Below are positions 14,867-36,259 of a stretch of DNA of 64,000 nucleotides, one piece after another. Each line of letters begins with the position of its first letter. Positions within the stretch are counted from its first letter, which is position 1. This DNA comes from a virus (lineage: Duplodnaviria > Heunggongvirae > Uroviricota > Caudoviricetes), in IMG/VR virus record IMGVR_UViG_3300014204_000001, positions 74,011-138,010 of that record. One strand, given 5' to 3'. Under the pieces are notes generated by a model that saw only the letters and a program-made list of their open reading frames with translations, searched no databases and was not told the origin of the DNA. The position numbers were made by a program, and so were the translations under genes.

Positions 14867-14875
14867 GGGTATAAG
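14867..14875 (+). promoter_or_regulatory. GGGTATAAG promoter-like motif (instance 1)
   Basis: 36 nt upstream of ATG 14911; same nonamer recurs at 7 other plus-strand gene starts. Confidence 0.5.
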
Positions 14876-14910
14876 AAAATAGTGGAGTCTTCTTTTCAAG
14901 GAGAAAACTC

Positions 14911-15114
14911 ATGGACGTCTTCATGTGGTGCGGCGGCGAACGGTTGATGGCACTGGCGTTGAACGGCGATGCGCTAAGCACGCTTCCCCGCGAAGGAGAG
15001 ACGTTGTTTCTCTCGGAGAGTCACGCCTGGTACACGGTGGTGTCTGTGGAACGGACGATGACCAGTTACGCGGGCGTGACCCAGATAAGCATTCACCTGA
15101 AGGCGAAACAGTGA
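14911..15114 (+). CDS. hypothetical protein (67 aa)
   Basis: AAGGAG RBS 7 nt upstream; stop overlaps GTG of next gene. Confidence 0.55.
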   Translation: MDVFMWCGGERLMALALNGDALSTLPREGETLFLSESHAWYTVVSVERTMTSYAGVTQISIHLKAKQ

Positions 15115-15734
15115 AGACCCTGGAAGAACTGAAGGCTGAGAACTTGCCCCTGAGCTCGAGCGGCCGCATGAAGAACCCTTATCTGGATAGTTTCAACCGG
15201 GTTCGCAAGGACCCTGTATGGTTCGAGAGTGCGTTCAAGGCCCGCCAAGGCCTGGTGCGCAAGTACTCCTGGGCCATTCCCAACGACGAAGCCATCGCCA
15301 AAATTGCCCGCTATTCCGGCGTCTTGGAGATCGGCGCAGGCACGGGCTACTGGTCCTGGCTGCTGCGCCAGGTCGGAGCCTCAGTGATCGCCACTGAGCC
15401 CACTCCGGGCGGCGGCGACCGCTACCAATTCACTTACTCCTGGACCGAGAAGGTTGAGCTATCGGCCCTGGAGGCGGTGAAGCAGTATGGTGAGGGCCGG
15501 GCGCTGATGAGCGTGTGGCCCTGCTACGACAAGCCTTGGTGCGCCGAAGCGCTGAAAGCCTACAAGGGCAGCACGTTCATCTACGTTGGTGAGGGCATGC
15601 GCGGCTGCACTGGCGATGAAACGCTGCACGAGATGTTGTGGCGGGAAGATGCGCCCTGGGACTTGGCTGAATCCGTGGCAATTCCGCGGTGGCAGGGATT
15701 ACACGACCAAATGCACGTTTTCCTTCGCAGGTAG
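15111..15734 (+). CDS. SAM-dependent methyltransferase-like protein
   Basis: motif I VLEIGAGTGYWSWLL; start GTG 15111 (GTGA overlap) or ATG 15168. Confidence 0.6.
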   Translation: MKTLEELKAENLPLSSSGRMKNPYLDSFNRVRKDPVWFESAFKARQGLVRKYSWAIPNDEAIAKIARYSGVLEIGAGTGYWSWLLRQVGASVIATEPTPGGGDRYQFTYSWTEKVELSALEAVKQYGEGRALMSVWPCYDKPWCAEALKAYKGSTFIYVGEGMRGCTGDETLHEMLWREDAPWDLAESVAIPRWQGLHDQMHVFLRR

Positions 15735-15744
15735 GAGGGCCCAA

Positions 15745-16035
15745 ATGGCAGACCCTGATTACTACCAGACGCTTCGGCGCCTGGTGGACGTGAACAAGAT
15801 CCTGGCGCTAATTGAAGCAACGCCTAGTTCGCAGGATCCTCGACAGCCTGAGCTGCGAGAGGAGTCGGCGAAGCTGATGTTGATGCTGATGCGCCCGCTG
15901 TATCGAGATCGGCGCGTTTGTGCGGCGTGCGGACGCGGAAAGGCCGGCCAGAAGTACGCGCTGTGCGTCGAGTGTCGGGACGGCTGCGGGATGAGTGCCG
16001 CAGATTGCTGCTCACATTGGACGCCGCTCAAGTAA
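15745..16035 (+). CDS. hypothetical Cys-rich protein (96 aa)
   Basis: ATG after GTAGGAGGG RBS; CAACGRGKAGQKYALCVECRDGCGMSAADCC. Confidence 0.55.
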   Translation: MADPDYYQTLRRLVDVNKILALIEATPSSQDPRQPELREESAKLMLMLMRPLYRDRRVCAACGRGKAGQKYALCVECRDGCGMSAADCCSHWTPLK

Positions 16036-16076
16036 TCTCCGAAGTGCACCTTCACTCGCAAGTAGCAGGAGAGCAC

Positions 16077-17117
16077 ATGCGTTACGCAACGCTGATGCTT
16101 CTGGCAGTGCTGTTCATGGCTTGCACGGGCTCCGAGGCGCCGGCAGGCAGCAACGAAGAGCAGGTGGCGGGGCCGCAGGGGGCCAAGGGAGATCCGGGCA
16201 TTGCCTGGAAGGGCGCCTGGACCGAGGGCACTACCTACGCGCCCAATGATGTCGTTTCGGACAACGGGTCGACGTACATTGCCCTCCAGCCCAACCGCGG
16301 CACCACGGACGTCACGGAGTTCTGGGCGCCGTTTGCGATGCAGGGCGCTGTCGGTCCTCAGGGACCTCAGGGACTGAAGGGCGCTCAGGGATCTGCAGGG
16401 CTCACAGGGCCTCAGGGATTCCAGGGCCTGAAGGGTGACAAGGGTGATACCGGCGCTGCCGGACCCCAGGGCGTACCCGGAATCGCTGGCGCCATGGGGC
16501 CTCAGGGCCTGAAGGGTAACACGGGTAATACCGGCGCCACGGGGCCTCAGGGCCCGAAGGGTGACACTGGTGCCGCGGGGCCCCAGGGCCTGAAGGGTAA
16601 TACGGGTAACACTGGTGCCGTAGGCCCCGCAGGCATCATGGGACCCCAAGGCCCTCAGGGGCCGCAAGGCGACCCCGGCGAGACGCTGCCAGCGGCGTAC
16701 GCCATGGACGGGACGGGGCGAATAGTGGCGCCAGTGCTGGGTATATACAATACGCTCATCACCCTCACCGAAACAGTCGGGGCCACGAAAGTCGCCATTA
16801 CACGCGACCGGACAACTGGGGAGCCTACTATGCTTCACTCCCTTCTCTATTTCACAGGTCCCAGCTGCACCGGAGCGGCCTATATCAACACGTGCGTGGA
16901 GAGTGTATTCCGTGTAGCGACGACACCGCAAATCACGTATGACGTGTACGTGATGACCGGCGCCGCAGCGCAAAGCATCGGGTATCACTCTACACGAACT
17001 CGGGGTAGTGATAACTGCCAACCGTATGCCCTGGGTGGCACTGTTACGGCCTTCCCGGCGGTCAAGGTGGGATCCGTCTACAACTTGACGCCACCGCTGC
17101 GGTATTACTTCCCATAA
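16077..17117 (+). CDS. collagen-like (Gly-X-Y repeat) putative lipoprotein, 346 aa
   Basis: signal/lipobox-like MRYATLMLLAVLFMAC; about 60 uninterrupted G-X-Y triplets (GPQGPQGLKGAQGSAGLTGPQG...); C-terminal globular domain. Confidence 0.7.
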   Translation: MRYATLMLLAVLFMACTGSEAPAGSNEEQVAGPQGAKGDPGIAWKGAWTEGTTYAPNDVVSDNGSTYIALQPNRGTTDVTEFWAPFAMQGAVGPQGPQGLKGAQGSAGLTGPQGFQGLKGDKGDTGAAGPQGVPGIAGAMGPQGLKGNTGNTGATGPQGPKGDTGAAGPQGLKGNTGNTGAVGPAGIMGPQGPQGPQGDPGETLPAAYAMDGTGRIVAPVLGIYNTLITLTETVGATKVAITRDRTTGEPTMLHSLLYFTGPSCTGAAYINTCVESVFRVATTPQITYDVYVMTGAAAQSIGYHSTRTRGSDNCQPYALGGTVTAFPAVKVGSVYNLTPPLRYYFP

Positions 17118-17182
17118 CAAGATACGCCACGAGGCGGTAGGGCCCCGTGGCGTATCTTGTATTTTTGATTTGTGAGGTAACT

Positions 17183-17452
17183 ATGGGAAAAACGATTTTG
17201 TGTAAAACCTGTGACCAACCTACCCTGATGTTTGGAACCAAGCTTTGCGACAGGTGTTACGAGGTCCAATCGAGGCTGCGCGCGACGCTTGTGGAAATCA
17301 CTTGTGATGTCTGTAAGCATGTGATCACCCCAAAAGAAGACACGACTCATCTTGTAGTTGACCCCAATTATTCCGAGGAGACGTGCGAAGCAGCATACGA
17401 TCTCTGCCCGTCGTGCACTGCGAAGTTCAAGAAGTTTCTAGGTAACAGCTAA
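17183..17452 (+). CDS. zinc-ribbon protein (89 aa)
   Basis: CKTCDQ...CDRC and CDVCKH...CPSC. Confidence 0.55.
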   Translation: MGKTILCKTCDQPTLMFGTKLCDRCYEVQSRLRATLVEITCDVCKHVITPKEDTTHLVVDPNYSEETCEAAYDLCPSCTAKFKKFLGNS

Positions 17453-17464
17453 GGAGAAACCGCG

Positions 17465-17752
17465 ATGGATTTGATCGAGCTGCTCCATGACGTGACGGAG
17501 CTTCGCAGGGTGACTCCTGAGGACTGCCGCGATTGTAGCGACGACGTATACAATGGTCAGCTGGCCGAGAAGTGCTGGGGCCGGGACTATGGAAAGCTGG
17601 CACCCAGCATGCTGGTGCCCAACTACGCGGAACCGCCCTGGGATTTTCCAGTGACAGTGCGGCCCAGCTGCTACAAATGCAAAGGCCACGTGACTGTCGC
17701 CGAAAGCGTGGTAAAAGACACCAATGCGCAAGTAAGGCGCAAAGGAGGCTAA
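17465..17752 (+). CDS. hypothetical protein (95 aa)
   Basis: ORF track; RBS GGAGAAACCGCG ATG. Confidence 0.55.
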   Translation: MDLIELLHDVTELRRVTPEDCRDCSDDVYNGQLAEKCWGRDYGKLAPSMLVPNYAEPPWDFPVTVRPSCYKCKGHVTVAESVVKDTNAQVRRKGG

Positions 17753-17967
17753 TGTTCAAGGTTGGTCAGAAGGTGCGTATTCACAAGCACGAGAGCAGCG
17801 ATGCGTCGTTCAACGACACGTGGAATGGCCGCGAAGGCACCGTTATACGGGTTAACGATGTGCTTCGACAGGCGGCGCCGGATGTCTACAAGGAGACACT
17901 CTACTCTGTAACCTGCGATAACGGCGAAGACGAAGCTTTTTGGGAATGCGAACTGGAGGCGGCGTAA
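17752..17967 (+). CDS. small protein resembling the N-domain of array members (71 aa, no C2HC tail)
   Basis: MFKVGQKVRIHK...GREGTVIRV parallels A10 MSEKFKVGDRVRNV...; AAAGGAGG RBS; TAATG overlap. Confidence 0.55.
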   Translation: MFKVGQKVRIHKHESSDASFNDTWNGREGTVIRVNDVLRQAAPDVYKETLYSVTCDNGEDEAFWECELEAA

Positions 17968-18257
17968 CGCTGGAGTATGACGATGGCCGCGTGGAGGCGC
18001 TGAGCGGGGAGCAAGCGCGAGCGTGGATCGAGACAGTTAACGGCGCCTATTTAATGGCCGCGACTCACGGTTGCGAGCTACCGCAGTTCGTTTCCGAGGA
18101 AGTCAAACCGGGTACGCGTACCGATCTGGTGCGCGTGTTGAGCAACAGAGTTACTCAACTGAAGGAGGCAGAGCGCCTCGGGTTCTATCGAGGCAAGATC
18201 GCAGCGGGCATGGCGACGAAGAAATTACGTCAGGGCGTGCGCTTTGGAATCGCATGA
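17940..18257 (+). CDS. hypothetical protein (105 aa)
   Basis: ORF track; start ambiguous (ATG 17940/17946 or GTG 17988). Confidence 0.45.
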   Translation: MGMRTGGGVTLEYDDGRVEALSGEQARAWIETVNGAYLMAATHGCELPQFVSEEVKPGTRTDLVRVLSNRVTQLKEAERLGFYRGKIAAGMATKKLRQGVRFGIA

Positions 18258-18284
18258 ACGACAACGATTGAGAGGAAGACCGTA

Positions 18285-18542
18285 ATGGCAAACAAAACGA
18301 AGAAGGACAGAGCAATCGACTTCATCAACGAGACCCGCGACATGGCTCCCGCGAAGCTCAACAAGCTGATCCATGGAGAGGCTGGCGAGGAGCTTGCGAC
18401 GCTCTTCCTCTCGTACAGCGCCAAACTAATCGAGAAGGAGCCTGAGCGGGTCCTTGAGAACTGCTCGTCGTTGATGCTGATGGGCTATCTGATCCGCGCC
18501 CACGAGGAGCAGAAGGAGAAGCAGGACCCCAAGTTGCACTGA
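18285..18542 (+). CDS. hypothetical protein (85 aa)
   Basis: GAGGAAGACCGTA ATG. Confidence 0.55.
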   Translation: MANKTKKDRAIDFINETRDMAPAKLNKLIHGEAGEELATLFLSYSAKLIEKEPERVLENCSSLMLMGYLIRAHEEQKEKQDPKLH

Positions 18543-18553
18543 AAGGAGATCGA

Positions 18554-18727
18554 ATGAAATTCGAGCACTGGCGTGGTACGACCCTGAATGGAATGTTCTT
18601 CTGTGGGGTTAACACGCCCGAGGCGAAAGCCAACCGGGACCTCCTTACCCACAACGGGTGGGGTGTGTACAAGCCACTGCGTGAGCTGCGAAGGGCAGGT
18701 AACGCGCGTGGACTGCGCCAGCCTTGA
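18554..18727 (+). CDS. hypothetical small protein (57 aa)
   Basis: GAAAGGAG RBS then ATG; overlaps alternative-frame ORF 18588-18836 (either may be real). Confidence 0.35.
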   Translation: MKFEHWRGTTLNGMFFCGVNTPEAKANRDLLTHNGWGVYKPLRELRRAGNARGLRQP

Positions 18728-18808
18728 GCAGACGTATCATGATGGTTATGGCCCCTACACCTTGCCTATCAAGATCATCGAGAAGGCTGCGCGGTGGCGC
18801 AAGGAGAC

Positions 18809-19066
18809 CCCGTGTTCGACATGCAAAAGGTGCTAGACAAGCTCTTCGAGCGAGGACCTGACCGTGTCGTGATCAGCGAGAAAGGCCTCGCTACATCAGC
18901 CAGGCTCGCGGAGCAAGATCACGGTGTTACGCCGGACATTGTCTTCATCCGGGACGACGGCTGGACACTCGGCGCCTCAAAGCACTTCGCCAAGGTGGCG
19001 CACGCACTTTGGGCAGATCACTGGGTTGCACTGGTGCGTTATCAGGATTACAGCAGACGAAGGTGA
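18809..19066 (+). CDS. hypothetical protein (~85 aa)
   Basis: AAGGAGA RBS then GTG 18809 (or ATG 18821). Confidence 0.5.
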   Translation, partial: PVFDMQKVLDKLFERGPDRVVISEKGLATSARLAEQDHGVTPDIVFIRDDGWTLGASKHFAKVAHALWADHWVALVRYQDYSRRR

Positions 19067-19075
19067 CACTAACGA

Positions 19076-19101
19076 ACGGCCCCCCGGGGGCCGCTCTTTT
19101 T
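19076..19101. terminator. hairpin terminator between convergent genes
   Basis: ggcccccgggggcc stem followed by ctctttttt. Confidence 0.65.
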
Positions 19102-19772
19102 TAGCACCCGTACTGCGCCAAAGCCGCCTTGTAGCCGCGTAGGCAAGCCCACTTCTGGAAGTTTGGGTGGTTCTGTACACGGTTCCAGAGAGTATTGAGG
19201 TCCTGCATCTTGCGCAGGTCGCCGCCGCGGTCTGGGTGATGCCGCATGGCCTCTGCGTGGTAGCGCTGCTTGGCCTCGGCCTTGGTCTTCACGCCCTTAA
19301 GCCAGTCGATGTTCTTGGGGTCCGTAGGACCGTTTTCGCGCACAGGCGGCGCTTCTCCAGGGGCGTGGTGTTGGGTATGCGACCGCATTACTGGAGAGAT
19401 GGACGGGCCGAGGTAGGCACCTGTGTACGCCCCAGCACTAGCACCATGCAACCCAAAAAAGGCCGCTGCGCGGAGTGGGGACATGCTTGCGTCATTATCG
19501 CCATAGGCCCCCCAGAGTGCCCCAGGGATTGCGCCAATTGCTGCGCCGATGCCCGCATCGCGGAGTACACGCCCTGGCGTGCCCGGGTGTCCTATGCCTG
19601 CACCCATACCTAGAAGACCGGGAATGAGGGCTGAGTTTAGGACCGCTTCTGTGCGGGACTCCTTCTTCTCGAGCGGCCTGAGTGCCCCGGCCAGCGCCCC
19701 GGGAACCGCGGAGGCTAGGCCGCTAGCTAGTGCGTTGTACGCGATGTCGCGCAGGATGTTATTCGTAGTCAT
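19101..19772 (-). CDS. J-domain (DnaJ-like) protein with Gly/Ala-rich GxxxG N-terminal region
   Basis: C-terminal ...KQRYHAEAMRHHPDRGGDLRKMQDLNTLWNRV contains HPD tripeptide; N-region AIGAIPGALWGAYG... Confidence 0.6.
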   Translation of the reverse strand: MTTNNILRDIAYNALASGLASAVPGALAGALRPLEKKESRTEAVLNSALIPGLLGMGAGIGHPGTPGRVLRDAGIGAAIGAIPGALWGAYGDNDASMSPLRAAAFFGLHGASAGAYTGAYLGPSISPVMRSHTQHHAPGEAPPVRENGPTDPKNIDWLKGVKTKAEAKQRYHAEAMRHHPDRGGDLRKMQDLNTLWNRVQNHPNFQKWACLRGYKAALAQYGC

Positions 19773-19808
19773 ACCTGCCAGTATAGGCCGAAAAACGCCT
19801 CACGCGCT

Positions 19809-19817
19809 GGGTATAAG
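19809..19817 (+). promoter_or_regulatory. GGGTATAAG promoter-like motif (instance 2)
   Basis: 29 nt upstream of ATG 19846. Confidence 0.5.
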
Positions 19818-19845: not shown

Positions 19846-20019
19846 ATGGGCACGATCCTCAAGGTTGCTGCTGGCGTCTTCCTGGGCGGTGCGCTTCTCG
19901 AAGCTGCCAACATCTTCATGGTCGCCAAGTTCGCTGATGCGATCAAAGACAATCTGGACGGCGTCCTGCACGCCGCGGAAGAGGCGGCCAAGCGGACGCA
20001 GGAGGAGGGAACTACGTAA
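19846..20019 (+). CDS. small membrane protein (57 aa)
   Basis: AGGAGC RBS; hydrophobic LKVAAGVFLGGALLEAANIFMVA; not in ORF track (<60 aa). Confidence 0.45.
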   Translation: MGTILKVAAGVFLGGALLEAANIFMVAKFADAIKDNLDGVLHAAEEAAKRTQEEGTT

Positions 20020-20161
20020 TGGGAATCTTCTTAAAGATAGCCGTTGCGGCCGTTGCAGCCGGCGCTGGTGCTGTGGTTGGCATCGAGCTGGGCGCGCAGG
20101 CTCTGTGCGGCATGAAGTCCGCCGCTGACTGGGTACAACGCAAGATGCGCAAGGAGAGCTA
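20018..20161 (+). CDS. small membrane protein (47 aa)
   Basis: TAATG overlap; IAVAAVAAGAGAVVGIELGA. Confidence 0.4.
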
Positions 20162-20241
20162 ATGTTCCGCATAGCACTCGGGGTGGCCTTGGGGCTGGTT
20201 CTGTACGACCTGATTCAGTATGTGCTCGAAGAGAGGCGTTG
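20161..20241 (+). CDS. tiny membrane peptide (26 aa)
   Basis: TAATG overlap; MFRIALGVALGLVLYDLIQYVLEERR. Confidence 0.3.
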
Positions 20242-20260
20242 AAATCTTGCTGCAAGGAAA

Positions 20261-20290
20261 AGAACGCGGCTAGGATCGCGTTCTTTTTTT
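20261..20290 (+). terminator. rho-independent terminator
   Basis: agaacgcg...cgcgttct + T7. Confidence 0.7.
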
Positions 20291-20302
20291 GCCCCTGTTG
20301 TC

Positions 20303-20311
20303 GGGTATAAG
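20303..20311 (+). promoter_or_regulatory. GGGTATAAG promoter-like motif (instance 3)
   Basis: 29 nt upstream of ATG 20340. Confidence 0.5.
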
Positions 20312-21117: not shown

Positions 21118-21582
21118 ATGAAGATCATTCGCAATACTTTGTACACTCGCGAGTTGACACCGATGACGGTAACGATGCGGGACATCGATCTGCATCCGCC
21201 GTTCGAGCGAACTGTAAAAGAGTTGTGCCGCCCCGTTCCAGGGCTATTCTTCGTGGTTGAGATTATTGACGCCGAAGACGCGCTCGACGTGACCGCGGCA
21301 ACAAACCTAGCTATGCAGCACTGGCAGGAATGTAATCAAGCCGAGCGAGATATGGCAACACTATATTACTGGGACGAGGCAGCGCTCGCGCAGGTAACTC
21401 CGGGTGGTACGTTGATGGCGACCAAGCCGGCACCATTGACTGTCAAGCAGATCATCTACACCCTGGAGATGCTGGCATACAGCCCTTTATATAGAGGGCA
21501 GCAGATAATCGCTATCGCCCAGGATTTACAGGTGGTACGTATGCAGGGGGGTAAGGCCCAGATCGGAGGAGCGAGTGCCTAA
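21118..21582 (+). CDS. hypothetical protein (154 aa)
   Basis: GGTGGAGG RBS. Confidence 0.55.
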   Translation: MKIIRNTLYTRELTPMTVTMRDIDLHPPFERTVKELCRPVPGLFFVVEIIDAEDALDVTAATNLAMQHWQECNQAERDMATLYYWDEAALAQVTPGGTLMATKPAPLTVKQIIYTLEMLAYSPLYRGQQIIAIAQDLQVVRMQGGKAQIGGASA

Positions 21583-22225
21583 TTGGTGCACCAACCGACT
21601 TACTGTCACTGGCCCAAAGGCGGATATCGCACATTTCGTGGAATTCGCAGCATATAGCTCTGAAAAGTACAATACGGCATTCAGCTTGGCGAAGTTCGTG
21701 CCACCCCCACCCGAAGGTATGCCGGGATACAAGTGGTACGATTGGCGTGTCACCAACTGGGGTACAAAGTGGGACGTGGTGGCCTGTATTGACCACACGC
21801 CTGGACGCGCTATATTCCAGTTCAATTCTGCGTGGAGCCCGCCGGGACCTGTAATCGTCGCGGCGGCGGAGAAGTTCCCGATGCTCGAATTTGAGCACGT
21901 CTACTACGAACGTGGTTGTGACTTCGGTGGCGTGGCTACGTTTTCCGAGGGTATCTGCATTTCGAACATCGAAGAGGGGGCGCTCGAGACTGAGTTGCGC
22001 TGTTACGGCGTCGTGAACAGAAGCTGCGCTACGTGCTGGGAAGACGTCGAGACGACGGAAGTCCACGGCAAGGTATACTGCGACGAGTGCATGGAGAATC
22101 AGTGCGCCTGCTGCGACCACCCGAAGGATGAACACGCGGACGGTGGCAAGTGCCTCTACGAGCCTACGACGTTCATGGCTCTCAAAGACGCTCTGAATAA
22201 CGGTATAAGGAAAGATCCCGACTAA
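21575..22225 (+). CDS. fusion protein: unrelated ~170-aa N-domain + array-type C2HC GKCLY C-terminal block (216 aa)
   Basis: C-term CATCWEDV...CDECMENQCACCDHPKDEHADGGKCLYEPTTFMALKD; N-term MPNWCTNRLTV...NWGTKWD. Confidence 0.65.
   Translation: MPNWCTNRLTVTGPKADIAHFVEFAAYSSEKYNTAFSLAKFVPPPPEGMPGYKWYDWRVTNWGTKWDVVACIDHTPGRAIFQFNSAWSPPGPVIVAAAEKFPMLEFEHVYYERGCDFGGVATFSEGICISNIEEGALETELRCYGVVNRSCATCWEDVETTEVHGKVYCDECMENQCACCDHPKDEHADGGKCLYEPTTFMALKDALNNGIRKDPD
22204..22212 (+). promoter_or_regulatory. GGTATAAGG promoter-like motif (instance 4, inside 3' end of preceding CDS)
   Basis: 30 nt upstream of TTG 22239. Confidence 0.4.
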
Positions 22226-22238: not shown

Positions 22239-22406
22239 TTGCAGCTGACTCTCAACGCCTACTTCCCGCTGCTCTCACTGCTGGAAGATCCGCAGAACCG
22301 CCGAAGCTATCTCATGGCGGTTCTCCCACGCGTCGAGGTTGATTCTCCCGAGTACGAGCTATTAGTGGAGGAACTGCGCAAGCTGGAGCGCACCTTCATC
22401 AACTAG
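22239..22406 (+). CDS. hypothetical small protein (55 aa, TTG start)
   Basis: CTAGGAGG RBS 6 nt upstream of TTG; not in track (<60 aa). Confidence 0.4.
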   Translation: MQLTLNAYFPLLSLLEDPQNRRSYLMAVLPRVEVDSPEYELLVEELRKLERTFIN

Positions 22407-23571: not shown

Positions 23572-23949
23572 GTGTTCCAAGACAAGCTCCACGCGGCCCT
23601 CATGAAATCCTCTGTTAATCTCAGCGCCCGCAGCATCGAGAAGCTCACGAAAGAGCTCAATACGCTGGTAACGGAAGAGATTCTGGAGTCCCAGAACACG
23701 TATGCCTCGACGCGGATAGCTCGGGTGATCCTGGCATACAAGACTCCTGAGAGCGTCTGCAATAGCAAAGGCGCCTTCGACTTCCGGATCACCCAATCGG
23801 AAATCGCCGACGCCGTTGGTGTGAGCCGTACGTACGTGAGTACGATCATCAACGAATGGAAGCGGGAGGAGATCCTGCGAGGCTATGGAAGGACGATCTG
23901 TGTCCTCGACGAGAAGCGGCTCTGTGAAATCGCCAATGGCCAACCTTAA
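23572..23949 (+). CDS. HTH transcriptional regulator (Crp/FNR-type C-terminal helix-turn-helix)
   Basis: ITQSEIADAVGVSRTYVSTIINEWKREEIL. Confidence 0.6.
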   Translation: MFQDKLHAALMKSSVNLSARSIEKLTKELNTLVTEEILESQNTYASTRIARVILAYKTPESVCNSKGAFDFRITQSEIADAVGVSRTYVSTIINEWKREEILRGYGRTICVLDEKRLCEIANGQP

Positions 23950-24784: not shown

Positions 24785-24824
24785 CCAAACACAGCCCGGC
24801 CTACCCAGGTCGGGCTGTGTTTGG
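24785..24824 (+). terminator. 14-bp hairpin (possible terminator or RNA stabiliser; no T-run)
   Basis: ccaaacacagcccg...cgggctgtgtttgg. Confidence 0.4.
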
Positions 24825-24833: not shown

Positions 24834-24842
24834 TGGTATAAG
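24834..24842 (+). promoter_or_regulatory. GGTATAAGG promoter-like motif (instance 5)
   Basis: 29 nt upstream of ATG 24871. Confidence 0.5.
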
Positions 24843-25708: not shown

Positions 25709-25738
25709 CTTGTGGCGGGGGGCCTAACGGCCCCCTGC
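25709..25738. terminator. GC-rich hairpin between convergent genes
   Basis: gcggggggcc taac ggccccctgcc. Confidence 0.4.
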
Positions 25739-26446
25739 CCTGAAGTTTTCGTAATTTTCAAGGAAGGTCTCGATGTCGTCCTCAGACCCTCCGCGCAAGC
25801 CGGCGCCAAATGTAGTGGGCTTACCGCGACGCGTGTGAAGCGCCATGAGCTCTTGGCGCGTGGGCTCTTGTACGAATGCTGGATCACGGAAACCTTGCCG
25901 AACAGCATCTCGCGCAGTCTGCTCAGCTTCAGCGCGATGAAAAATAGCCGGATCGATACGGCGCAACCGCCGCTCCCGAATAACCTGCTCATTGGCAGCC
26001 ACTACATCGGACGGTGCCACCAGAGAGCTGCGAGCTGGGACTTTCAGGTTCGCCAGGGGGTCGCCCTCTGCGTGATTGAATACAAGCATGTGCCGACGCA
26101 TCGGGTGCGTAGGGTGTGGATCTACAGGTTCTCGGTGCGCCGGTAGCTGGTCTCGGCGCATCGCGAAACCGGTAGCTTCTGGGCCCCGCATGTAGGTCAT
26201 GCGCGGGCGATCTTTCCAGAGGTAAACACCGCTCCCATGCGCTGCAAGTTGAGGCCACAAACCTTCATTCAGTATGCCTCGAACCGATTGGGCGACAGGA
26301 CGATCCTTAGGGAGAACACCGTGGAACAGGTTATCGCCTCCACGCAGGAGCTCCCGCGCACGACGATACTGCTTTACAGCAGTAGGTACATTCGCCAACT
26401 TCTCAAGCGCCGCGGCGCAGCCAGCTTCATAGGCAATACTGCACAT
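25724..26446 (-). CDS. hypothetical protein (240 aa)
   Basis: TAATG overlap with RyR gene stop. Confidence 0.5.
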   Translation of the reverse strand: MCSIAYEAGCAAALEKLANVPTAVKQYRRARELLRGGDNLFHGVLPKDRPVAQSVRGILNEGLWPQLAAHGSGVYLWKDRPRMTYMRGPEATGFAMRRDQLPAHREPVDPHPTHPMRRHMLVFNHAEGDPLANLKVPARSSLVAPSDVVAANEQVIRERRLRRIDPAIFHRAEAEQTARDAVRQGFRDPAFVQEPTRQELMALHTRRGKPTTFGAGLRGGSEDDIETFLENYENFRAGGR

Positions 26447-26832
26447 TAGCTCTCCGGAGGCCATACAGTACGAAGTGCTCGGTATGTACGAAGGACGGCC
26501 TCATCCTTCTTACGCTCATACTCGGGCAGTTCTTCGTAGGACACCAGACACGGGTGTTCTTTTTTGGCCGCGTCCTTAACAGAACCATACTTCCAGCCAT
26601 CTCGGAGCTTGTGACTCACCCACGCCACGTGCGAAGCTGCGCACAGCTTGTCGAAGGGCGTGGCTTCAATGTCCAGTTCATCCCAGAAGCGGATGGAATG
26701 GCACGTAGCCGACTTCTGCCACTCTGGAGCTGTCTGCCAGGGCAGGCCGGGCTCACCGAGCCCGATCACGACATAAGCGTACCACGCTTGGTGGCACGCG
26801 GCGGCCAGGAGCTCTGTGCGGTCGGGGATCAT
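26446..26832 (-). CDS. RyR-domain protein (128 aa)
   Basis: DGWKYGSVKDAAKKEHPCLVSYEELPEYERKKDEAVLRTY matches RyR (PF02026) consensus GWxYGxxRDxxxRxHPCLVxxxELPExEKxxDR. Confidence 0.6.
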   Translation of the reverse strand: MIPDRTELLAAACHQAWYAYVVIGLGEPGLPWQTAPEWQKSATCHSIRFWDELDIEATPFDKLCAASHVAWVSHKLRDGWKYGSVKDAAKKEHPCLVSYEELPEYERKKDEAVLRTYRALRTVWPPES

Positions 26833-27683
26833 GGTGCCCGCATGGCGCTGAAGCGCGCAGGTTCTGTCTCAGTTCCCGGCAGCTGTGCTCGAGGTACTTG
26901 AGGTAAAGGCGGTGTACGCGGGGCCGACTTGGCGCGGATGCGGTTTTCCAGCGCGCGCACAGCTGGGGTGTACTCCGGACCTGGTTGCGCCTGATTGGGG
27001 TACAGCTTGAAGCCCTCCTCGGTAAGCATGGGTCGCCACTCAGGGATCTTCATGTTGTGCCGCAGCCCGTTGGACGCGATCTCGTTCTTCTTAAAGGGTA
27101 AGTAATCGACGATCTTCGGCTTGCCGCCACCTTCGGGCATCACCATGTTCTCTGGCTTGGTATCGAGCATGGTGAATCCCTGTGCACGGGCGGCTCGCTC
27201 ACCATCAACCTTGGACTGCATATACTTCTCAGCAGTTCGCTGATCAGCCTTGATGGCAGTGCCTGACAGCGTCTTGCCGGGAACAAACTCATACTTGTGA
27301 GTAAGTGAACCCTTGGGTCCCTGCGACTCGCCAAGAAACTGGGCAAATGCGGGGTTGTCCTGGTTGGCGGCACCCATCTGTGCGCGCCGCTTCCAGATCT
27401 CAGGAGAGTCCGCATCACCGCCGGGCCGAGACTGTTTCCAAATCTGCGCACGCGCCTGACCGCCGTGAGGCGCTGCCATGAGGCTAACGTTGGACTCGCC
27501 GCCACCCTTAAGGTCTGTAAGCTTCACAGGCCGGCTGGTAGGTGCGAACGAGGCCTCTGCGGCACGCGCAGCCAGGTTGAGCTTGCCCGAATTGGCCCAG
27601 TTACGAGCCATCGCACGACCCCTCGAGGCGAACTTTTCAAGGGCTGCATCAACGCCGAGAGCATACAAATCTGAGGTAGACAT
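26829..27683 (-). CDS. hypothetical protein (284 aa)
   Basis: ATGA overlap with RyR gene; first gene of a 3-gene minus-strand operon. Confidence 0.5.
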   Translation of the reverse strand: MSTSDLYALGVDAALEKFASRGRAMARNWANSGKLNLAARAAEASFAPTSRPVKLTDLKGGGESNVSLMAAPHGGQARAQIWKQSRPGGDADSPEIWKRRAQMGAANQDNPAFAQFLGESQGPKGSLTHKYEFVPGKTLSGTAIKADQRTAEKYMQSKVDGERAARAQGFTMLDTKPENMVMPEGGGKPKIVDYLPFKKNEIASNGLRHNMKIPEWRPMLTEEGFKLYPNQAQPGPEYTPAVRALENRIRAKSAPRTPPLPQVPRAQLPGTETEPARFSAMRAP

Positions 27684-27704
27684 GGCACAAGTCTAGGACA
27701 AACG

Positions 27705-27713
27705 CGGTATAAG
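27705..27713 (+). promoter_or_regulatory. GGTATAAGG promoter-like motif (instance 6)
   Basis: 23 nt upstream of ATG 27736. Confidence 0.45.
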
Positions 27714-28288: not shown

Positions 28289-28498
28289 ATGAGTGAGGAG
28301 CCGCCAATCAAGAAGCGGGTTTTCCTGCACGGGCAGTGGGTGGAAGTCACTGTACTTCCGCCCATGCCTGCGCCGGAACCCAGTACAACTGTAGCCATTA
28401 CCGGCAAGGCACACCTGGCCTCGGTTGATACGACGGCCTTCGATACCCCGGTGACACACCGTGATCGACATAAGCCTCCAAAGTCAACCCTCCACTGA
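28289..28498 (+). CDS. hypothetical protein (69 aa)
   Basis: ORF track; weak RBS. Confidence 0.4.
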   Translation: MSEEPPIKKRVFLHGQWVEVTVLPPMPAPEPSTTVAITGKAHLASVDTTAFDTPVTHRDRHKPPKSTLH

Positions 28499-28664
28499 GC
28501 ACATCTTTTTTGTGTCTTTGCGCTTCGTGCGAGAACTCTGCTCGAACCGTGCAATCCTGGCACTGTACGTGGATGACTCGGATACCGCGGAGATCTACGA
28601 GACGCTGACGAAGCTCGTAGAGGACCTTGATGTTGATATGAAGGCACGGCTGTTTACGCGGTAA
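28461..28664 (+). CDS. hypothetical protein (67 aa)
   Basis: ORF track; 38-nt overlap with upstream. Confidence 0.35.
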   Translation: MIDISLQSQPSTEHIFFVSLRFVRELCSNRAILALYVDDSDTAEIYETLTKLVEDLDVDMKARLFTR

Positions 28665-28666: not shown

Positions 28667-28675
28667 GGGTATAAG
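28667..28675 (+). promoter_or_regulatory. GGGTATAAG promoter-like motif (instance 7)
   Basis: 40 nt upstream of GTG 28715. Confidence 0.45.
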
Positions 28676-30174: not shown

Positions 30175-30217
30175 AAAACAGGGAATAACGCGGTATCAGA
30201 AGAGTCGTACTCACCCC

Positions 30218-30252
30218 AGGCCTGGTCTCGTGTGAGGCCAGGTTTCTTTTTG
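30218..30252 (+). terminator. rho-independent terminator
   Basis: cctggtctc gtgt gaggccagg + tttcttttt. Confidence 0.65.
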
Positions 30253-30260
30253 GAGACACA

Positions 30261-30905
30261 GTGAACAAGGTTACGTTTTACGAGGCGCAGGGATTCGTCG
30301 ACTACGTCAAGCGGCACAGTCAGGCACTGGAGAGCGGTCCGTTCGAGATCTTTCAAACCGTGGACGTCAAACGGCAGTATCTCTACGGCCAATGCCATGG
30401 TCGCAACGACGTGGAGGTCATTTCGGATACCTACCAGGCCTACGTGAAGGTGCTGGGCGAGGTGATTGCTGCCGTCTACAGCACGAAGCCGGGAGCTCCG
30501 AGGGGCTGGGAGCACGCCTCGGACAAGCGCCTGATGCGCGCTGAAACCCGTAAGACTGAGGCAGTCGATATCCTCGTGAGTCTAGGGGTCAAGCCGGCAG
30601 CATTGGCGCCCCTGAAAAAGGTGGCGCTCGGCGAGCTGCAGCAGTTGATTGACAACTCGTCGGAAGACGAAACGACGGTCATCGACGACAAGCGGCTGAT
30701 CAGCAAGCGCAAGAAGAACCAGCTGGTGTTCCCGACCAACGGCCAGGATGGCATTGACGAGACCATGCTTACCCTGACCCGCGACGGATCGCGCATCCAG
30801 TACAACTTCTCCGTCGACTGGGCCAAGGAGTGGGCCGCGCGCGAGGAGGACGCTCAGAACATCATCCACAAGGCTGGCTTCATCATCTACAAGGGAAACT
30901 TCTAA
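30261..30905 (+). CDS. hypothetical protein (214 aa, GTG start)
   Basis: ORF track. Confidence 0.5.
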   Translation: MNKVTFYEAQGFVDYVKRHSQALESGPFEIFQTVDVKRQYLYGQCHGRNDVEVISDTYQAYVKVLGEVIAAVYSTKPGAPRGWEHASDKRLMRAETRKTEAVDILVSLGVKPAALAPLKKVALGELQQLIDNSSEDETTVIDDKRLISKRKKNQLVFPTNGQDGIDETMLTLTRDGSRIQYNFSVDWAKEWAAREEDAQNIIHKAGFIIYKGNF

Positions 30906-32471: not shown

Positions 32472-32482
32472 CCCCAATCTAT

Positions 32483-32515
32483 GGGCGCCCCTCTTAACGG
32501 AGGGGCGCTTTTTTA
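32483..32515 (+). terminator. rho-independent terminator
   Basis: gggcgcccctc ttaacg gaggggcgc + T6. Confidence 0.7.
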
Positions 32516-33025
32516 GGCCCCAAGGGGCCAGCGCGCCCGCTTTAGCCAGCCACGCAGGAACTTCTTCATCTGCGGCTTCTTCTCGGCAAGCTGGTGGTAG
32601 TAGCTTGCACAGCACGCGCCCATAGCAAGAAGCCACGCATCAGGATCGCAGGCGTTGATGTACTCGATGGACTTGTGCCCGAGAACGCCATCGAGGACCA
32701 GGCCGACGCCACAGGCCTGTTGGGCGAAGCGGTGTGCGCGCCCCGGGCCCATATTCACGCAGGCATCAAAGAGCTTGGTGGCCACGCGAGCGTTGCGAAT
32801 GCGCTCGTAGCCATAAGTATCCCAAAACTCTTTGCGGTAGATCTCAACGGCCTGGTTGATAGTCAGATTGCGGATCTCATCGGCGGTCTCAGCGTAGCCG
32901 AGCGGCTTGGCGAAGCGCAAGCTGATGCCGAAATTGGTGGCGCCCCCGGGGTCTGCTGTATCATCAGCGAAGCCGCCTTCGTGTGCGAGAACGACTTTCA
33001 CAGCTTCGTTGAAATGCGAGGTCAT
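32513..33025 (-). CDS. endolysin, glycoside hydrolase family 108-like lysozyme
   Basis: LAHEGGFADDTADPGGATNFGIS matches GH108 EGGxxxDxxDPGGxTxxGI signature. Confidence 0.65.
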   Translation of the reverse strand: MTSHFNEAVKVVLAHEGGFADDTADPGGATNFGISLRFAKPLGYAETADEIRNLTINQAVEIYRKEFWDTYGYERIRNARVATKLFDACVNMGPGRAHRFAQQACGVGLVLDGVLGHKSIEYINACDPDAWLLAMGACCASYYHQLAEKKPQMKKFLRGWLKRARWPLGA

Positions 33026-33188
33026 CGCACAGGTCTCTCGGCCATTGACGGAATGGTCACCCCGAGTTGAACTGTTTTGCGTGGAGTGTCTTGTACGCCT
33101 TGGCTCCAGGTAGGCGGAGGCTTAGGTGTCCCGTGGACCCCAAAGGTCTTCGCAGCGTCGGCGCTGCCAAGCTTGTAGAGATCCTGCA

Positions 33189-33914
33189 TTAGCTTACCTC
33201 GCCACGAGAAACCAGCAGAGGTGTAGACTCGTTTGCTGTCGTGGCCTGTTGGCCTGTAACAGCCGACTGCATTCTGTTCTGCTCCGAGAGTACACCGCGA
33301 ATCGCTTCGTGCATGTCGGCGACACGGCTATCAGCGGTCGCAGCATTGTAGAGCGCCCCAGCTCCGCCGCCAGCCAACCCGCCTAAGACTGTCGCCGGAA
33401 TGCCGCCTTTCGGGAAGAGCTTGTGGCCCGCGAACGAGCCCGCCAGGAGTCCCATCAGGGGATGGTGAACCGTACCCTGATTCTGTTCGAGCTCGAGCAG
33501 AGCCTGCGGGTCGAGCCCTTGATCTAGGCCTTCGTAGGCGCGCTCGAAGGTGGAGCGCGGAACAAAGCGACGCATTCCCTCGTAGCGGACGTCTTTGCCT
33601 GTGCCGCTAACGCTGAGCGGAGTGCCCGGGATGCCCATGCCGATGCCGTAATCCGCGGCCTTGATGCCAAAGCCCTCAAGTGCGCCAAGGGTTCCCTGTT
33701 GCCGTGCTGTCTCCTGCATCATAGCCTTACTCCTGCGCTTGAATCCGCCGCCAAGCCCAAAGCCGCCAAGGGCTCCGAGAACGGCTCCCTGAGTCCTCTC
33801 CTCAGGGCGCGCCATCGCGTAGCCGATACCCGCGCCAGCGAGCGTACCGAGGGCTTGTGTACGCCAAGCCGTCTTCTCGAGACAGGATCCACGCGTAAAA
33901 GGCTGGTTGAGCAT
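33189..33914 (-). CDS. Gly-rich (GxxxG) hypothetical protein, 241 aa
   Basis: composition and glycine-zipper motifs resemble N-region of the J-domain protein 19101-19772. Confidence 0.45.
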   Translation of the reverse strand: MLNQPFTRGSCLEKTAWRTQALGTLAGAGIGYAMARPEERTQGAVLGALGGFGLGGGFKRRSKAMMQETARQQGTLGALEGFGIKAADYGIGMGIPGTPLSVSGTGKDVRYEGMRRFVPRSTFERAYEGLDQGLDPQALLELEQNQGTVHHPLMGLLAGSFAGHKLFPKGGIPATVLGGLAGGGAGALYNAATADSRVADMHEAIRGVLSEQNRMQSAVTGQQATTANESTPLLVSRGEVS

Positions 33915-33935
33915 GCAGGTATTATAGACCAGAGC

Positions 33936-34190
33936 TTACTTGCCCGAGTAGCCTACCTGGATTTTGCCCGGCGTCTTAGGGCGGTCGCCATGGGTGTGGA
34001 TGTAGCCGGCCTTGAGCTTCTTCGAGTGCAGCGTGGTCGGGATGATGACGTTGCAGGTGTGTGTACAGCCCAGTAGGCGCGTAGTGGACGTAGTGTTGCA
34101 GGCAGGGCAGATAGGGGCAGGGTCGTCCGGGCGCATGAGCTCCTCGAACTTGTGTCCGCAGGCGTTGCACTGGAAGTCATACAGCTTCAT
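33936..34190 (-). CDS. FmdB-type zinc-ribbon protein
   Basis: MKLYDFQCNACGHKFEEL...CPACN. Confidence 0.55.
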   Translation of the reverse strand: MKLYDFQCNACGHKFEELMRPDDPAPICPACNTTSTTRLLGCTHTCNVIIPTTLHSKKLKAGYIHTHGDRPKTPGKIQVGYSGK

Positions 34191-34193
34191 AGG

Positions 34194-35936
34194 TCACTCC
34201 TGGGTTTTGAAATCATCGCCGAACACGGACGCGGGACGCACCTTAGGACAATTACCGGGGTCCGCCTCGCCCAGCACGGGGCGAGACGTGGGCAACATAG
34301 CATCACCGAGAATTTCTCGCTCGGCTGCGTCAAGGACGGCATCGATTTGTTCGAGGGCTACGGTAACAGCTGAGCCTGCGGCACTTGAGCTGAGGAGCAG
34401 CTGACTAAGTAGCGCCTTGGCAGGGGCGAGGGCAGCGGCAGTCGGCGCCGTCACAATCACAACTAGCCCGCCCACGAATTCGTCCCCCCGGTCGAAAGGC
34501 GGACGTTGAGGGTCGATACTGCTGGGCGCAAAGGCCGCTGCCAGGTCCGTCTTGAGGAAGTCAGTGCCGCCAACGCCTTCGATCTGCTTGGCGTACATGC
34601 CAACGTTCATGTCGGTGTCGAGCATGGACGTGAGGCGCCGGATCGTGCCGCCCAGGTCAGTAGCCAGCTCTTCGTACTTCGTGATCTCAGTCCCCAAGTA
34701 CTCGAGGTACTTCTTCAACATGTCTCCGTAGCCCGTGGTGGCGCCACTAAACTGCGCGACGGCGCTCTCGAGTCTCCCGAGAAGGCGTGCCAAATCAGGA
34801 ATCACTGCGGCGACGCTAGGTGTGCGGATCCAATCGGGTGGCACGCCCTTAGCGGAAAGACTAGACCCCAGCGCGTTCAGCGGATTTGCCTTGGCCACGT
34901 TTGACAGTCGGACAAATCCTCGTTCATCGCCCAAACCCGCGAGCAATTCCAACATCGATCCCGTGGTCCAGTGGTAGCTGACCGCATAGTAGAACGGAAC
35001 ACGGTCTGTGGCGCTGACGTCGAGGTAGGTGTTCTGCGATCCTTCGAGTACCGCGACTACTTCCACTGCGTCGTCGCCTGCGCCGGCCTTGAGCCCCTTG
35101 CTGAGAGTAACGGTACCGAAAACGTCAGCGACGTTAGTTACGCCCAAGAGCTTGGCGCTCCTGCTGCGGATGACAGTGGCACGGCGGACGGCGACTGAGA
35201 GATCTAGCGCGGGCAGCTCCACCAAGCCAGGAGAGTGCACCCACTCCACGAAAACACCATCTAGGGTCGCGCGTGCAGTGACCCCTTCTGGGACGGGGAA
35301 TTGACTTGGTAACATCTCGGCGCCGGGCTGGTTCGTGCCGAAAAGCGTTTTGAAGGCCAAAAGAAAGTTGAGCAACTGTGCGTAGTCAGAGGAGCCCGCG
35401 ACTACGCAAGCGCCGTAGATTGCGTCGGTGGGACTGAGCTGTGGGCGGTTGACGTCTCCCTCGTCGTTTAGGGAGTCAAACACCGTACGTAGGAACCCTG
35501 GATTGCCACCAGAAGCCCCTGCAACTTCCTCAAAATAGCGCCGAAGCTCTGTATCATCGCCTGCCAAGGTTGCGTCGAGTCCGACCTTCTGGGCGGTGGC
35601 TAGGAACTCCTTTAGCGACATGCCTACACGCTTCAGCGCAGCTTCCACAACAGAGGAGACAACCAGGCGTTTTCGGGGAGGCACAAACAGGATGTAGACG
35701 CCCGCATCCTGCTTCAGCGACTGTATCGCGCTGCTGATCGCATCGGTTGCAGCCTTTATTGCGACCTGGGTTGCGGAGAGGTTAGCGATCTCCGTTGCAG
35801 ACAGCATCTGGAGGACCGACTGGAACACCTTGAGCGTCGTCGTCAACGTATCAAGGACTGACGTGAACGAATTCGCGGCGTCAGAGACACCTGATGGGAG
35901 CTTCGGAAGCTCGAAGTTGGACCAGGTAGTAGTCAT
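34194..35936 (-). CDS. hypothetical large protein (580 aa), possibly virion/baseplate-associated
   Basis: long ORF in structural-strand block; no motif recognised. Confidence 0.55.
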   Translation of the reverse strand: MTTTWSNFELPKLPSGVSDAANSFTSVLDTLTTTLKVFQSVLQMLSATEIANLSATQVAIKAATDAISSAIQSLKQDAGVYILFVPPRKRLVVSSVVEAALKRVGMSLKEFLATAQKVGLDATLAGDDTELRRYFEEVAGASGGNPGFLRTVFDSLNDEGDVNRPQLSPTDAIYGACVVAGSSDYAQLLNFLLAFKTLFGTNQPGAEMLPSQFPVPEGVTARATLDGVFVEWVHSPGLVELPALDLSVAVRRATVIRSRSAKLLGVTNVADVFGTVTLSKGLKAGAGDDAVEVVAVLEGSQNTYLDVSATDRVPFYYAVSYHWTTGSMLELLAGLGDERGFVRLSNVAKANPLNALGSSLSAKGVPPDWIRTPSVAAVIPDLARLLGRLESAVAQFSGATTGYGDMLKKYLEYLGTEITKYEELATDLGGTIRRLTSMLDTDMNVGMYAKQIEGVGGTDFLKTDLAAAFAPSSIDPQRPPFDRGDEFVGGLVVIVTAPTAAALAPAKALLSQLLLSSSAAGSAVTVALEQIDAVLDAAEREILGDAMLPTSRPVLGEADPGNCPKVRPASVFGDDFKTQE

Positions 35937-36202
35937 GATTTGGTCTCAATGTTCTTTAGCGGCGTGGCAGCATCAATTGTCGCGGTATTTAGTGTCAGCA
36001 GCTCGTCGGGCTTTTCAGCACAGGCCTGCAGTGCTAGCGCGTGACGAGCGGCGCGCAAGTTAGGAGCTTGCAGCCCCAGTGAATGTGCCTGCGCCTCAGC
36101 TGCGCGGATTTTCTGCGCCAGGATGAGACGTTCCGCGCGCAGCTGTAATTGTAGGACGCGGACCAGAACAGAGGCCAGCGGGAGCTCTCGAGACCATGCC
36201 AT
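35933..36202 (-). CDS. hypothetical protein (~89 aa)
   Basis: MAWSRELPLASV...; ATGA overlap with 34194-35936. Confidence 0.45.
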   Translation of the reverse strand: MAWSRELPLASVLVRVLQLQLRAERLILAQKIRAAEAQAHSLGLQAPNLRAARHALALQACAEKPDELLTLNTATIDAATPLKNIETKS

Positions 36203-36250
36203 GTCGCATAACCTAGCACACCATGGGGTCCTAAAAAAGAGACCTGCGAG

Positions 36251-36259
36251 GGGTATAAG
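36251..36259 (+). promoter_or_regulatory. GGGTATAAG promoter-like motif (instance 8)
   Basis: 72 nt upstream of ATG 36331. Confidence 0.4.

Follow-up and report, generated by a model that had tools for sequence, protein, structure and literature searches.

A sharply conserved octamer as a very likely promoter signal for non-structural genes of a large phage with its own RNA polymerase

What is signalled by a short motif that recurs just upstream of genes in a large uncultured phage, and which machinery would read it? The question is raised by a stretch of 64,000 nucleotides (nt) of a Caudoviricetes genome (IMG/VR record IMGVR_UViG_3300014204_000001, positions 74,011 to 138,010; the whole stretch is referred to here as the window), which occupies bases ~91,645-155,644 of a 179,300-bp metagenomic contig. 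A preliminary description of the window had listed eight plus-strand sites of a nonamer with the core TATAAG and proposed a phage-specific -10-type promoter. The octamer at the heart of these sites, GGTATAAG, is very likely a promoter signal for the non-structural genes of a large phage carrying its own RNA polymerase (RNAP). Observation establishes that the motif is over-represented, where its copies lie, which way they face and how well they are conserved, and that the phage has RNAP genes with orthologues in a cultured relative. The explanation that best accounts for all of this, and that we consider rather probable, is a promoter core lacking a -35 element, dedicated to non-structural genes and read by the phage's multisubunit RNAP together with a phage specificity factor.

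The octamer and its surroundings

Four parts make up the window. Small genes form an array on the minus strand from 1 to 14.5 kb, and next to it, at 14.9-32.5 kb, is an accessory block that lies mostly on the plus strand but has two minus-strand islands. The third part joins a short minus-strand block (32.5-36.2 kb) to a short plus-strand one (36.3-38.0 kb), and the last is a minus-strand structural block (38.3-64 kb). GGTATAAG is present nine times against 0.54 copies expected, a number reached in none of 100 shuffles, with eight copies on the plus strand between 14.8 and 36.3 kb and the ninth on the minus strand (Table 1). Each of the nine is followed, after 22-71 nt, by a start codon on its own strand. 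In an unbiased comparison of every 8-mer within 100 nt before the starts of 136 genes (from self-trained gene calling), GGTATAAG ranks first, with 9/9 copies upstream of genes (p=1.5e-10). Variants with one mismatch are nearly missing from the window, which makes for an unusually sharp signal.

Conservation extends over the octamer and not to the first base of the nonamer, which varies. The exact nonamer GGGTATAAG is found five times, always on the plus strand (14867, 19809, 20303, 28667 and 36251; shuffles expect 0.15), and the other three sites of the preliminary description are first-base variants (CGG-, TGG- and CGGTATAAG) with nonamer starts at 22201, 24834 and 27705. The eight sites are thus real and far beyond chance, as a count against expectation within the window bears out, although only five carry the exact nonamer; the coordinate 22204 given for one of them marks the start of its TATAAG core. 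Conserved information is confined to the octamer and a weak preference for G one base upstream of it.

Other details of that description fare unevenly. Most start codons do lie within the proposed 23-40 nt, with the 36252 site, at 71 nt, falling outside this range (Table 1), and the spacing said to be common to five sites is shared by three on the plus strand. Across these sites and those of relatives the distance from octamer to start codon ranges from 20 to 71 nt. One copy, inside the end of a coding sequence, had been matched to an unannotated open reading frame (ORF) with a TTG start, and this ORF (22239-22406), with its AGGAGG ribosome-binding site, is plausible. The motif is not absent from the minus-strand array as proposed, the ninth copy lying within it, and its proposed absence from structural blocks stands: there are no copies in the window's 25.7-kb structural block, nor on the structural-gene strand of Salmonella phage Arash, a cultured relative (see below).

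The surroundings of the copies are those of transcription starts. Between 14 and 38 kb there are four switches from minus- to plus-strand genes, and GGTATAAG is present at all four (14868, 19810, 27706 and 36252), which counts for a promoter because a new plus-strand transcript must begin there. The divergent gap holding copy 2 is 73 bp long, so that another promoter upstream of the motif would have to fit into 37 nt or less. Two more copies come directly after hairpins, as had been claimed, and folding energies confirm both hairpins (Table 1); that preceding copy 5 has no U-tract on the plus strand, and the A-run upstream of it is a U-tract on the minus strand. Units headed by GGTATAAG mostly end in terminators consisting of a hairpin and U-tract. 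Their genes are accessory or of no known function, and include those for methyltransferase-like, collagen/carbohydrate-binding module, Crp-type helix-turn-helix (HTH; 23572-23949) and metallophosphatase proteins.

These surroundings also bear on whether the motif is a promoter at all. It could instead be the operator site of a DNA-binding phage protein, the Crp-type HTH protein encoded in a motif-headed unit being one candidate, or an RNA-level signal in the 5' leader acting in processing or translational control, as its position within ~30 nt of the ribosome-binding site at most copies might suggest. Crp-family operators are two-fold symmetric, however, whereas GGTATAAG is no palindrome, is present singly at each site and faces the downstream gene in one fixed orientation, and the variable spacing to the start codon argues against an element linked to translation. 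Rfam offers no match for the motif (Rfam and tRNA scans of the window were empty). Moreover, the motif directly follows terminators, where a new promoter is needed, and divergent gaps as short as 73 bp leave no other conserved element to serve as one. We regard a non-promoter role as very improbable.

Taken as a promoter, TATAAG would stand in the place of the -10 hexamer (about -12 to -7), with the invariant GG at -14/-13; no conserved -35-like element is seen upstream of the window copies. The trinucleotide TG(T/A) begins 4-6 nt past the octamer at 5/9 window sites (p=0.003) and at 10/18 Arash sites (p=5e-5), against a background of ~0.13-0.14, and fits a start site because transcription would start there if TATAAG spans -12 to -7. 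The predicted start is ~6-8 nt downstream of the octamer, often in a TG(T/A)A element, and leaders would be roughly 15-32 nt long, lengths that agree with this position.

Conservation in uncultured relatives and in phage Arash

The comparative evidence is the strongest part of the case. A 194-kb IMG/VR relative, syntenic with the window from 12 to 44 kb at 37-76% protein identity, has 11 exact copies of GGTATAAG in ~31 kb, all on the same strand as in the window (~0.2 are expected per 21 kb). Three are intergenic and orthologous to the copies at 27706, 28668 and 36252, with the adjacent bases diverged, and another heads a gene cassette that is not present in the window. Three further relatives (contigs of 187-190 kb) have one copy each in 20.7 kb, always orthologous to that at 36252, and in an alignment of this gap from five genomes GGTATAAG is the sole run of consecutive invariant columns. 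In at least 10 further relatives, with RNAPs 50-78% identical and GC contents of 44-63%, a copy is present in the divergent gap upstream of the RNAP gene, facing away from it.

The accessory blocks of this phage and the 194-kb relative differ in their content of cassettes, each composed of a promoter, one or more genes and a hairpin terminator (L035:5741-7608 of the relative compared with window 30175-30260, and L130:1-10000 with window 14-25 kb). Inserted cassettes carry their own GGTATAAG and are moron-like.

Nothing close was found at the DNA level, a megablast of 23 kb against the phage collection giving no match. As protein probes, the collagen-repeat protein drew unrelated phages only, through its repeats, and the 214-aa (amino acid) and 260-aa proteins encoded at 30261-30905 and 26829-27611 yielded no usable relatives. 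A 253-aa tail protein encoded beside the sheath gene (39915-40676, minus strand) has 979 metagenome homologues at E<=1e-5, many of them on contigs of 165-195 kb, which places the phage in a large group with few cultured members.

Among cultured phages, the nearest relatives are Salmonella phage Arash (OQ632216, 181 kb) and the Vibrio phages D181, D148 and D69 (187 kb). Arash has orthologous RNAP, capsid and structural genes in the same order as this phage, although the proteins are only 31-38% identical and its GC content is 53% rather than 58%. There too GGTATAAG is the top upstream motif and is associated with non-structural genes and opposite-strand islands, with none on structural genes. 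Arash has 25 copies in 126 kb, 24 on the minus strand (in the non-structural arm and in gene islands within the structural block) and one on the plus strand. Of the 19 copies in its first 100 kb, 18 are on the strand that encodes the non-structural arm and 14 lie no more than 100 nt from a called start; the same unbiased k-mer test places GGTATAAG first here (p=1e-12). The structural and RNAP block accounts for the other six, every one on the minus strand and most of them preceding small islands of opposite-strand genes by 28-48 nt. Arash has a longer consensus, tGGTATAAGtAa-nn-TGTAa, giving a motif of ~11 nt plus the TGTA element as compared with 8-9 nt in this phage. The paper describing Arash reports no promoters, the word occurring 0 times (PMC10585845).

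The sole plus-strand copy in Arash (11588-11595) is 1 nt past the stop codon of gp8 and 4 nt before the ATG of gp9, upstream of the sigma-like gene gp10. A copy precedes the sigma gene by ~305-337 nt in 9/9 Arash-type contigs (L052-L060, sigma at least 61% identical), and may be an internal promoter giving early or self-reinforcing sigma expression.

The proposal of a phage-specific -10-type promoter is thus supported by the strand-specific orientation of the copies, their presence at strand switches and after terminators, the lack of a -35 element and the exact conservation of the octamer. Promoter function, the position of the start site, the identity of the polymerase and factor, and the timing are nonetheless inferred here from sequence and comparison.

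The polymerase and the candidate reader

Extending the analysis 10 kb beyond the window brings two RNAP genes into view just past its right end, both within the virion structural block. The product of one, at least 1,931 aa long, fuses beta domains with N-terminal domains of beta-prime, and that of the other, of 599 aa, corresponds to the beta-prime C-terminal part (Rpb1_5); matches to Rpb2_3, Rpb2_6, Rpb1_1, Rpb1_2 and Rpb1_5 are distributed across both genes. Identity to Arash Gp206 is 37-38% for the fused protein (E=1e-167), the 599-aa one shares 31% with Gp216, and the structural genes are syntenic. One RNAP set, fused rather than split, is seen in 83 kb of the contig, and Arash is annotated with one set and a sigma-like protein. 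The fused protein also matches PF18823 (InPase).

Mass spectrometry of Arash particles identified Gp206 as the most abundant protein, with Gp216 also abundant, and Gp10, the annotated sigma factor, was found with 100% coverage (PMC10585845). Gp10 has a match to Sigma70 region 3 (E=9e-9) and a weak one to region 2. Regions 3 and 2 of sigma-70 contact the extended -10 and -10 elements respectively. By analogy with these abundant orthologues the RNAP of the present phage, known here from its genes, would be packaged in the virion.

A phage-encoded reader is suggested by the presence of the same octamer in phages of 44-63% GC, one with a known Salmonella host, and by a motif that is near-invariant rather than degenerate and always ends in G. 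The phage RNAP with a phage factor is the most likely reader because Arash particles hold both an RNAP and a sigma-family protein. GGTATAAG would then drive the non-structural and accessory gene cassettes of a ~180-kb myovirus. By analogy with Arash it would represent the early (or early and middle) class used by the injected enzyme, with the structural genes using another signal, CCTAYACT (see below).

Several observations weigh against this explanation. The preliminary description had suggested a search outside the window for a phage RNAP or sigma factor; the former lies just past the right end, but no sigma-like gene was found in 83 kb of the 179-kb contig or in ~870 kb of related loci by tblastn, Pfam and a custom hidden Markov model. 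These searches comprised tblastn with Arash gp10, Pfam on 20 more proteins, a word-indexed protein search, an alignment scan of viral contigs, and the model, built from 24 gp10 homologues and run on ~165 kb of clade DNA and 708 kb of RNAP-adjacent loci, and are weak at ~25% identity. The packaging of Gp10 is not certain because carry-over is possible among the 116 virion proteins of Arash, which include metabolic enzymes, as its authors note (PMC10585845). Vibrio phage D181, an equally close RNAP relative, has 2 copies in 50 kb against ~1.8 expected. With only a single RNAP set in view, the logic of phiKZ, in which a virion RNAP acts early and a non-virion RNAP late, may not transfer. Finally, TATAAG matches five of the six positions of the host-type -10 consensus TATAAT, and the Arash copies often have TGG upstream, in the manner of an extended -10 element. 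The lack of enrichment in D181, together with distant sigma-bearing contigs that have no GGTATAAG upstream of the sigma gene, shows that the motif is widespread, not universal, among the RNAP relatives.

The last of the points against concerns a rival reading, in which the host primary sigma holoenzyme recognises GGTATAAG as an extended -10 promoter without a -35 element. Many phages use the host RNAP for their early genes, and terminators with a hairpin and U-tract suit a bacterial-type enzyme. Bacterial extended -10 promoters (TGnTATAAT, contacted by sigma-70 regions 3.0 and 2.4) share with the motif the G at -14, the following n, a TATAA-type hexamer and the lack of a -35 element; the G is found in all copies, and many Arash copies have T at -15 (TGGTATAAG accounts for 11 of the first 19), although this T is present in only 1/9 window copies. 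Yet sigma-70 depends on two -10 positions above all, one of them the T at -7, and here that T is replaced by a G that is invariant in 9/9 window copies and in every copy in the relatives and Arash (the octamer being exact). The base flipping of A-11 and T-7 in sigma-70 promoters has been summarised (PMC7598289). Host promoters are also normally degenerate, whereas the octamer is almost without variants and is the same in phages of 44-63% GC with evidently different hosts. No GGTATAAG copy passes a sigma-70 two-hexamer scan, whose matches in the window are not enriched (6 against 6.3 expected). On balance we find recognition by the host holoenzyme improbable.

A second rival retains a phage factor and leaves the phage RNAP uninvolved, the host RNAP core being redirected by a sigma-like protein as it is by T4 gp55, SPO1 gp28 or phiEco32 gp36. 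Promoters with a -10 element only are typical of T4 gp55, and a protein of the sigma-70 family is encoded by Arash. Where jumbo phages have been surveyed, their sigma factors act with the host RNAP (PMC7824862), but the presence of the Arash sigma-like protein in particles with very abundant RNAP subunits suggests that they act jointly (PMC10585845). Moreover, the phages with the motif all carry this RNAP, and no gp55-like or sigma-like protein is seen in the 83 kb of contig. The motif also avoids late structural genes, unlike T4 late promoters. Redirection of the host core is thus also unlikely.

The likeness to T4-style late promoters noted in the preliminary description holds for the architecture only. 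T4 late promoters, TATAAATA, are read by gp55 with gp33 and the gp45 clamp. They are similarly phage-specific and -10-only with a TATAA core, but have A where GGTATAAG has its invariant G, and GGTATAAG also requires the upstream GG. They serve structural genes, whereas GGTATAAG precedes non-structural genes and avoids the structural block, and the possession of its own RNAP is a further difference of this phage from the T4 late system. Pfam and PHROGs profiles matched no gp55-like or gp33-like factor among 50 of the larger proteins encoded in the window and its extension. A T4-type late promoter is rejected on both sequence and gene class.

Closer parallels are found in jumbo phages that encode RNAPs, where a highly conserved AT-rich motif near the -10 position of early operons is the promoter of the virion RNAP (PMC7598289). 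As here, the motif is short (~10 nt compared with 8-9 nt), highly conserved, positioned like a -10 element and without a -35 element; it was found computationally upstream of operons of small non-structural genes, and the genes for the multisubunit RNAP are interspersed with virion genes. Each of those phages is said to have a motif of its own, whereas the identical octamer here spans RNAPs that are ~31-38% identical. In phiKZ-type phages the RNAP subunits are split, there are two sets of them and a sigma factor is lacking (PMC7824862). The present phage differs in its size (~180 kb), in the single RNAP set seen in 83 kb with beta fused to the N-terminal part of beta-prime, and in a nearest cultured relative with a sigma-70-family protein in its particles; no phiKZ-type (Chimalliviridae) marker was seen in the 83 kb of contig. 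The phage probably works like the RNAP-encoding jumbo phages without being a phiKZ-type member.

It is conceivable, though we put this forward tentatively and at somewhat less than even chances, that these phages have an uncharacterised system in which an RNAP carried in the virion with a sigma-70-family factor of its own recognises a -10-like element whose last base is G, not T. Such a system would stand outside the dichotomy between phiKZ-type phages (RNAP, no sigma factor) and T4-type jumbo phages (sigma factor, no RNAP), and would be common to a large, mostly uncultured group of ~170-195 kb phages with hosts of very different GC content.

Other elements of the window, and implications

A second promoter-like class has the sequence CCTAYACT, whose TAYACT core keeps the A and T needed by a sigma-70 -10 hexamer. 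This class was found post hoc. Six exact copies are present against 1.8 expected, all on the minus strand, and five are intergenic (positional p=7e-6), 7-28 nt before minus-strand starts that include that of the sheath gene. Copies are kept at orthologous sites in relatives (L035:2830, L035:12880, L046:15957, L047:15544 and L048:15923) 5-6 nt before the ATG, implying leaderless or near-leaderless mRNAs, and in several distant relatives CCTAYACT faces the RNAP gene. Unlike GGTATAAG it is not enriched in Arash. CCTAYACT is a candidate for the structural or late promoter class.

Degenerate copies of the octamer, termed type B, are found at terminator junctions. The looser form GGTAnnAG, with exact copies removed, has 9/30 hits upstream of genes, a fraction reached by 0/59 patterns of the same composition, and most of these copies directly adjoin the T-tract of a terminator. 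Because the 194-kb relative has the same terminator-promoter layout five times with the exact octamer, tttcttttgGGTATAAG, type B copies are best read as weakened versions of the same junction.

Table 1. Coordinates of the octamer copies and other features in the window and its extension. Spacing is the number of nt between the element and the start codon.
Feature	Coordinates	Strand	Spacing	Context
GGTATAAG copy 1	14868-14875	+	35	Right end of 939-bp divergent gap; ATG 14911; counterpart in 194-kb relative (L130:1505) is the first site after the orthologue of the 616-aa gene
GGTATAAG copy 2	19810-19817	+	28	73-bp divergent gap after gene 19101-19772 (-); ATG 19846; TGAACC 5 nt downstream
GGTATAAG copy 3	20304-20311	+	28	11 nt past terminator hairpin and T-tract; ATG 20340; TGTACC 4 nt downstream
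GGTATAAG copy 4 (CGGTATAAG)	22202-22209	+	29	Within last codons of gene 21575-22225; TTG start of 55-aa ORF 22239-22406
GGTATAAG copy 5 (TGGTATAAG)	24835-24842	+	28	10 nt past hairpin 24785-24824; ATG 24871
GGTATAAG copy 6 (CGGTATAAG)	27706-27713	+	22	Divergent gap after minus-strand block 25724-27611; ATG 27736; exact octamer at orthologous position in 194-kb relative (L035:2848)
GGTATAAG copy 7	28668-28675	+	39	3 nt past stop of 28461-28664; GTG 28715; TGTGCC 4 nt downstream; exact octamer at orthologous position in 194-kb relative (L035:4083)
GGTATAAG copy 8	36252-36259	+	71	Divergent gap after minus-strand block 32513-36202; ATG 36331; TGTACC 5 nt downstream; kept at orthologous position in four relatives; 71-nt leader folds no better than shuffled sequence
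GGTATAAG copy 9	724-731	-	29	Just past stop of array gene; ATG of 380-694 (-)
Intrinsic-terminator-like hairpin and U-tract	20252-20292	+		-20 kcal/mol, z=-3.45; closes unit 19846-20162 just before copy 3
Long perfect hairpin	24785-24824	+		-37.2 kcal/mol, z=-7.83; directly before copy 5
RNAP genes	~65550-67349 and 68364 to beyond 73448	-		Window coordinates; listed as L005:6106-7905 / L005:1-5091
CCTAYACT (CCTATACT)	19780-19787	-		Intergenic; same 73-bp gap as copy 2, opposite direction
CCTAYACT	43821-43828	-		Intergenic
CCTAYACT	50182-50189	-		Intergenic
CCTAYACT	54498-54505	-		Intergenic
CCTAYACT	63476-63483	-		Intergenic
CCTAYACT	58951-58958	-		Intragenic
CCTAYACT variant CCTAGACT	27690-27697	-		
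Type B GGTAGAAG	36823-36830	+	15	Abuts terminator hairpin and T-tract; ATG 36846
Type B GGTATCAG	4095-4102	-		Abuts terminator hairpin and T-tract; minus-strand array
Type B GGTACCAG	6539-6546	-	26	Abuts terminator hairpin and T-tract; ATG of 6198-6512 (-)
Type B GGTATGAG	9314-9321	-		Abuts terminator hairpin and T-tract; minus-strand array

The minus-strand array (~700-12000) is composed of ~19 tandem copies of small paralogous genes (e.g. at 1215, 1701, 2177, 9906, 10160, 11128 and 11645), with one further copy to the left of the window and another at 22148 on the plus strand. The products end in a Cys/His motif, C-x2-C...H...G-K-C-L-Y-G-P-G-N-W-E-stop, and the same ending is present in the product of plus-strand gene 21575-22225 (Pfam DUF1281_C). 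The codons for N-W-E (AACTGGGAGG) also serve the following gene as its Shine-Dalgarno sequence. The start of that gene overlaps the stop or lies directly against it, and the array genes look translationally coupled. The second-ranked upstream k-mer family, GGGAAGTGCCTCT, is rejected as a promoter, being coding sequence for this Cys/His C-terminus.

To the right of the array is a 939-bp non-coding gap (13972-14910) with nested inverted repeats spanning 13961-14665 and no Rfam hit. The repeats include 102-nt arms (14069-14170 and 14456-14557) that are 83% complementary and 285 nt apart, an outer pair of 31 nt (13961-13991 and 14635-14665) and short direct repeats; the region could be a replication origin, an invertible segment or a regulatory region. 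In the structural block, a 1,048-aa protein (54534-57680, minus strand) homologous to Arash Gp222 has an apparent intein with a LAGLIDADG homing-endonuclease domain.

Literature searches with the literal motif returned only primers, and those for TATAAG phage promoters nothing relevant. The predicted GGTATAAG promoter is apparently undescribed, within the known kind of phage-specific promoters for a phage-encoded transcription machine. It provides a promoter map for a large and poorly annotated phage group in which most genes are without known function, and from sequence alone the genome can be split into promoter-gene-terminator cassettes and into non-structural and structural transcription classes. 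With the identical octamer in the cultured phage Arash, whose particles contain an RNAP and a sigma-like protein, the prediction is directly testable. Should the phage RNAP with that sigma-like protein prove to read GGTATAAG, a multisubunit RNAP of a phage would be seen to recognise promoters in a sigma-dependent way, and the G that closes the -10 element could be what withholds the promoter from the host enzyme. A compact orthogonal pair of promoter and polymerase could, in addition, serve as a tool.

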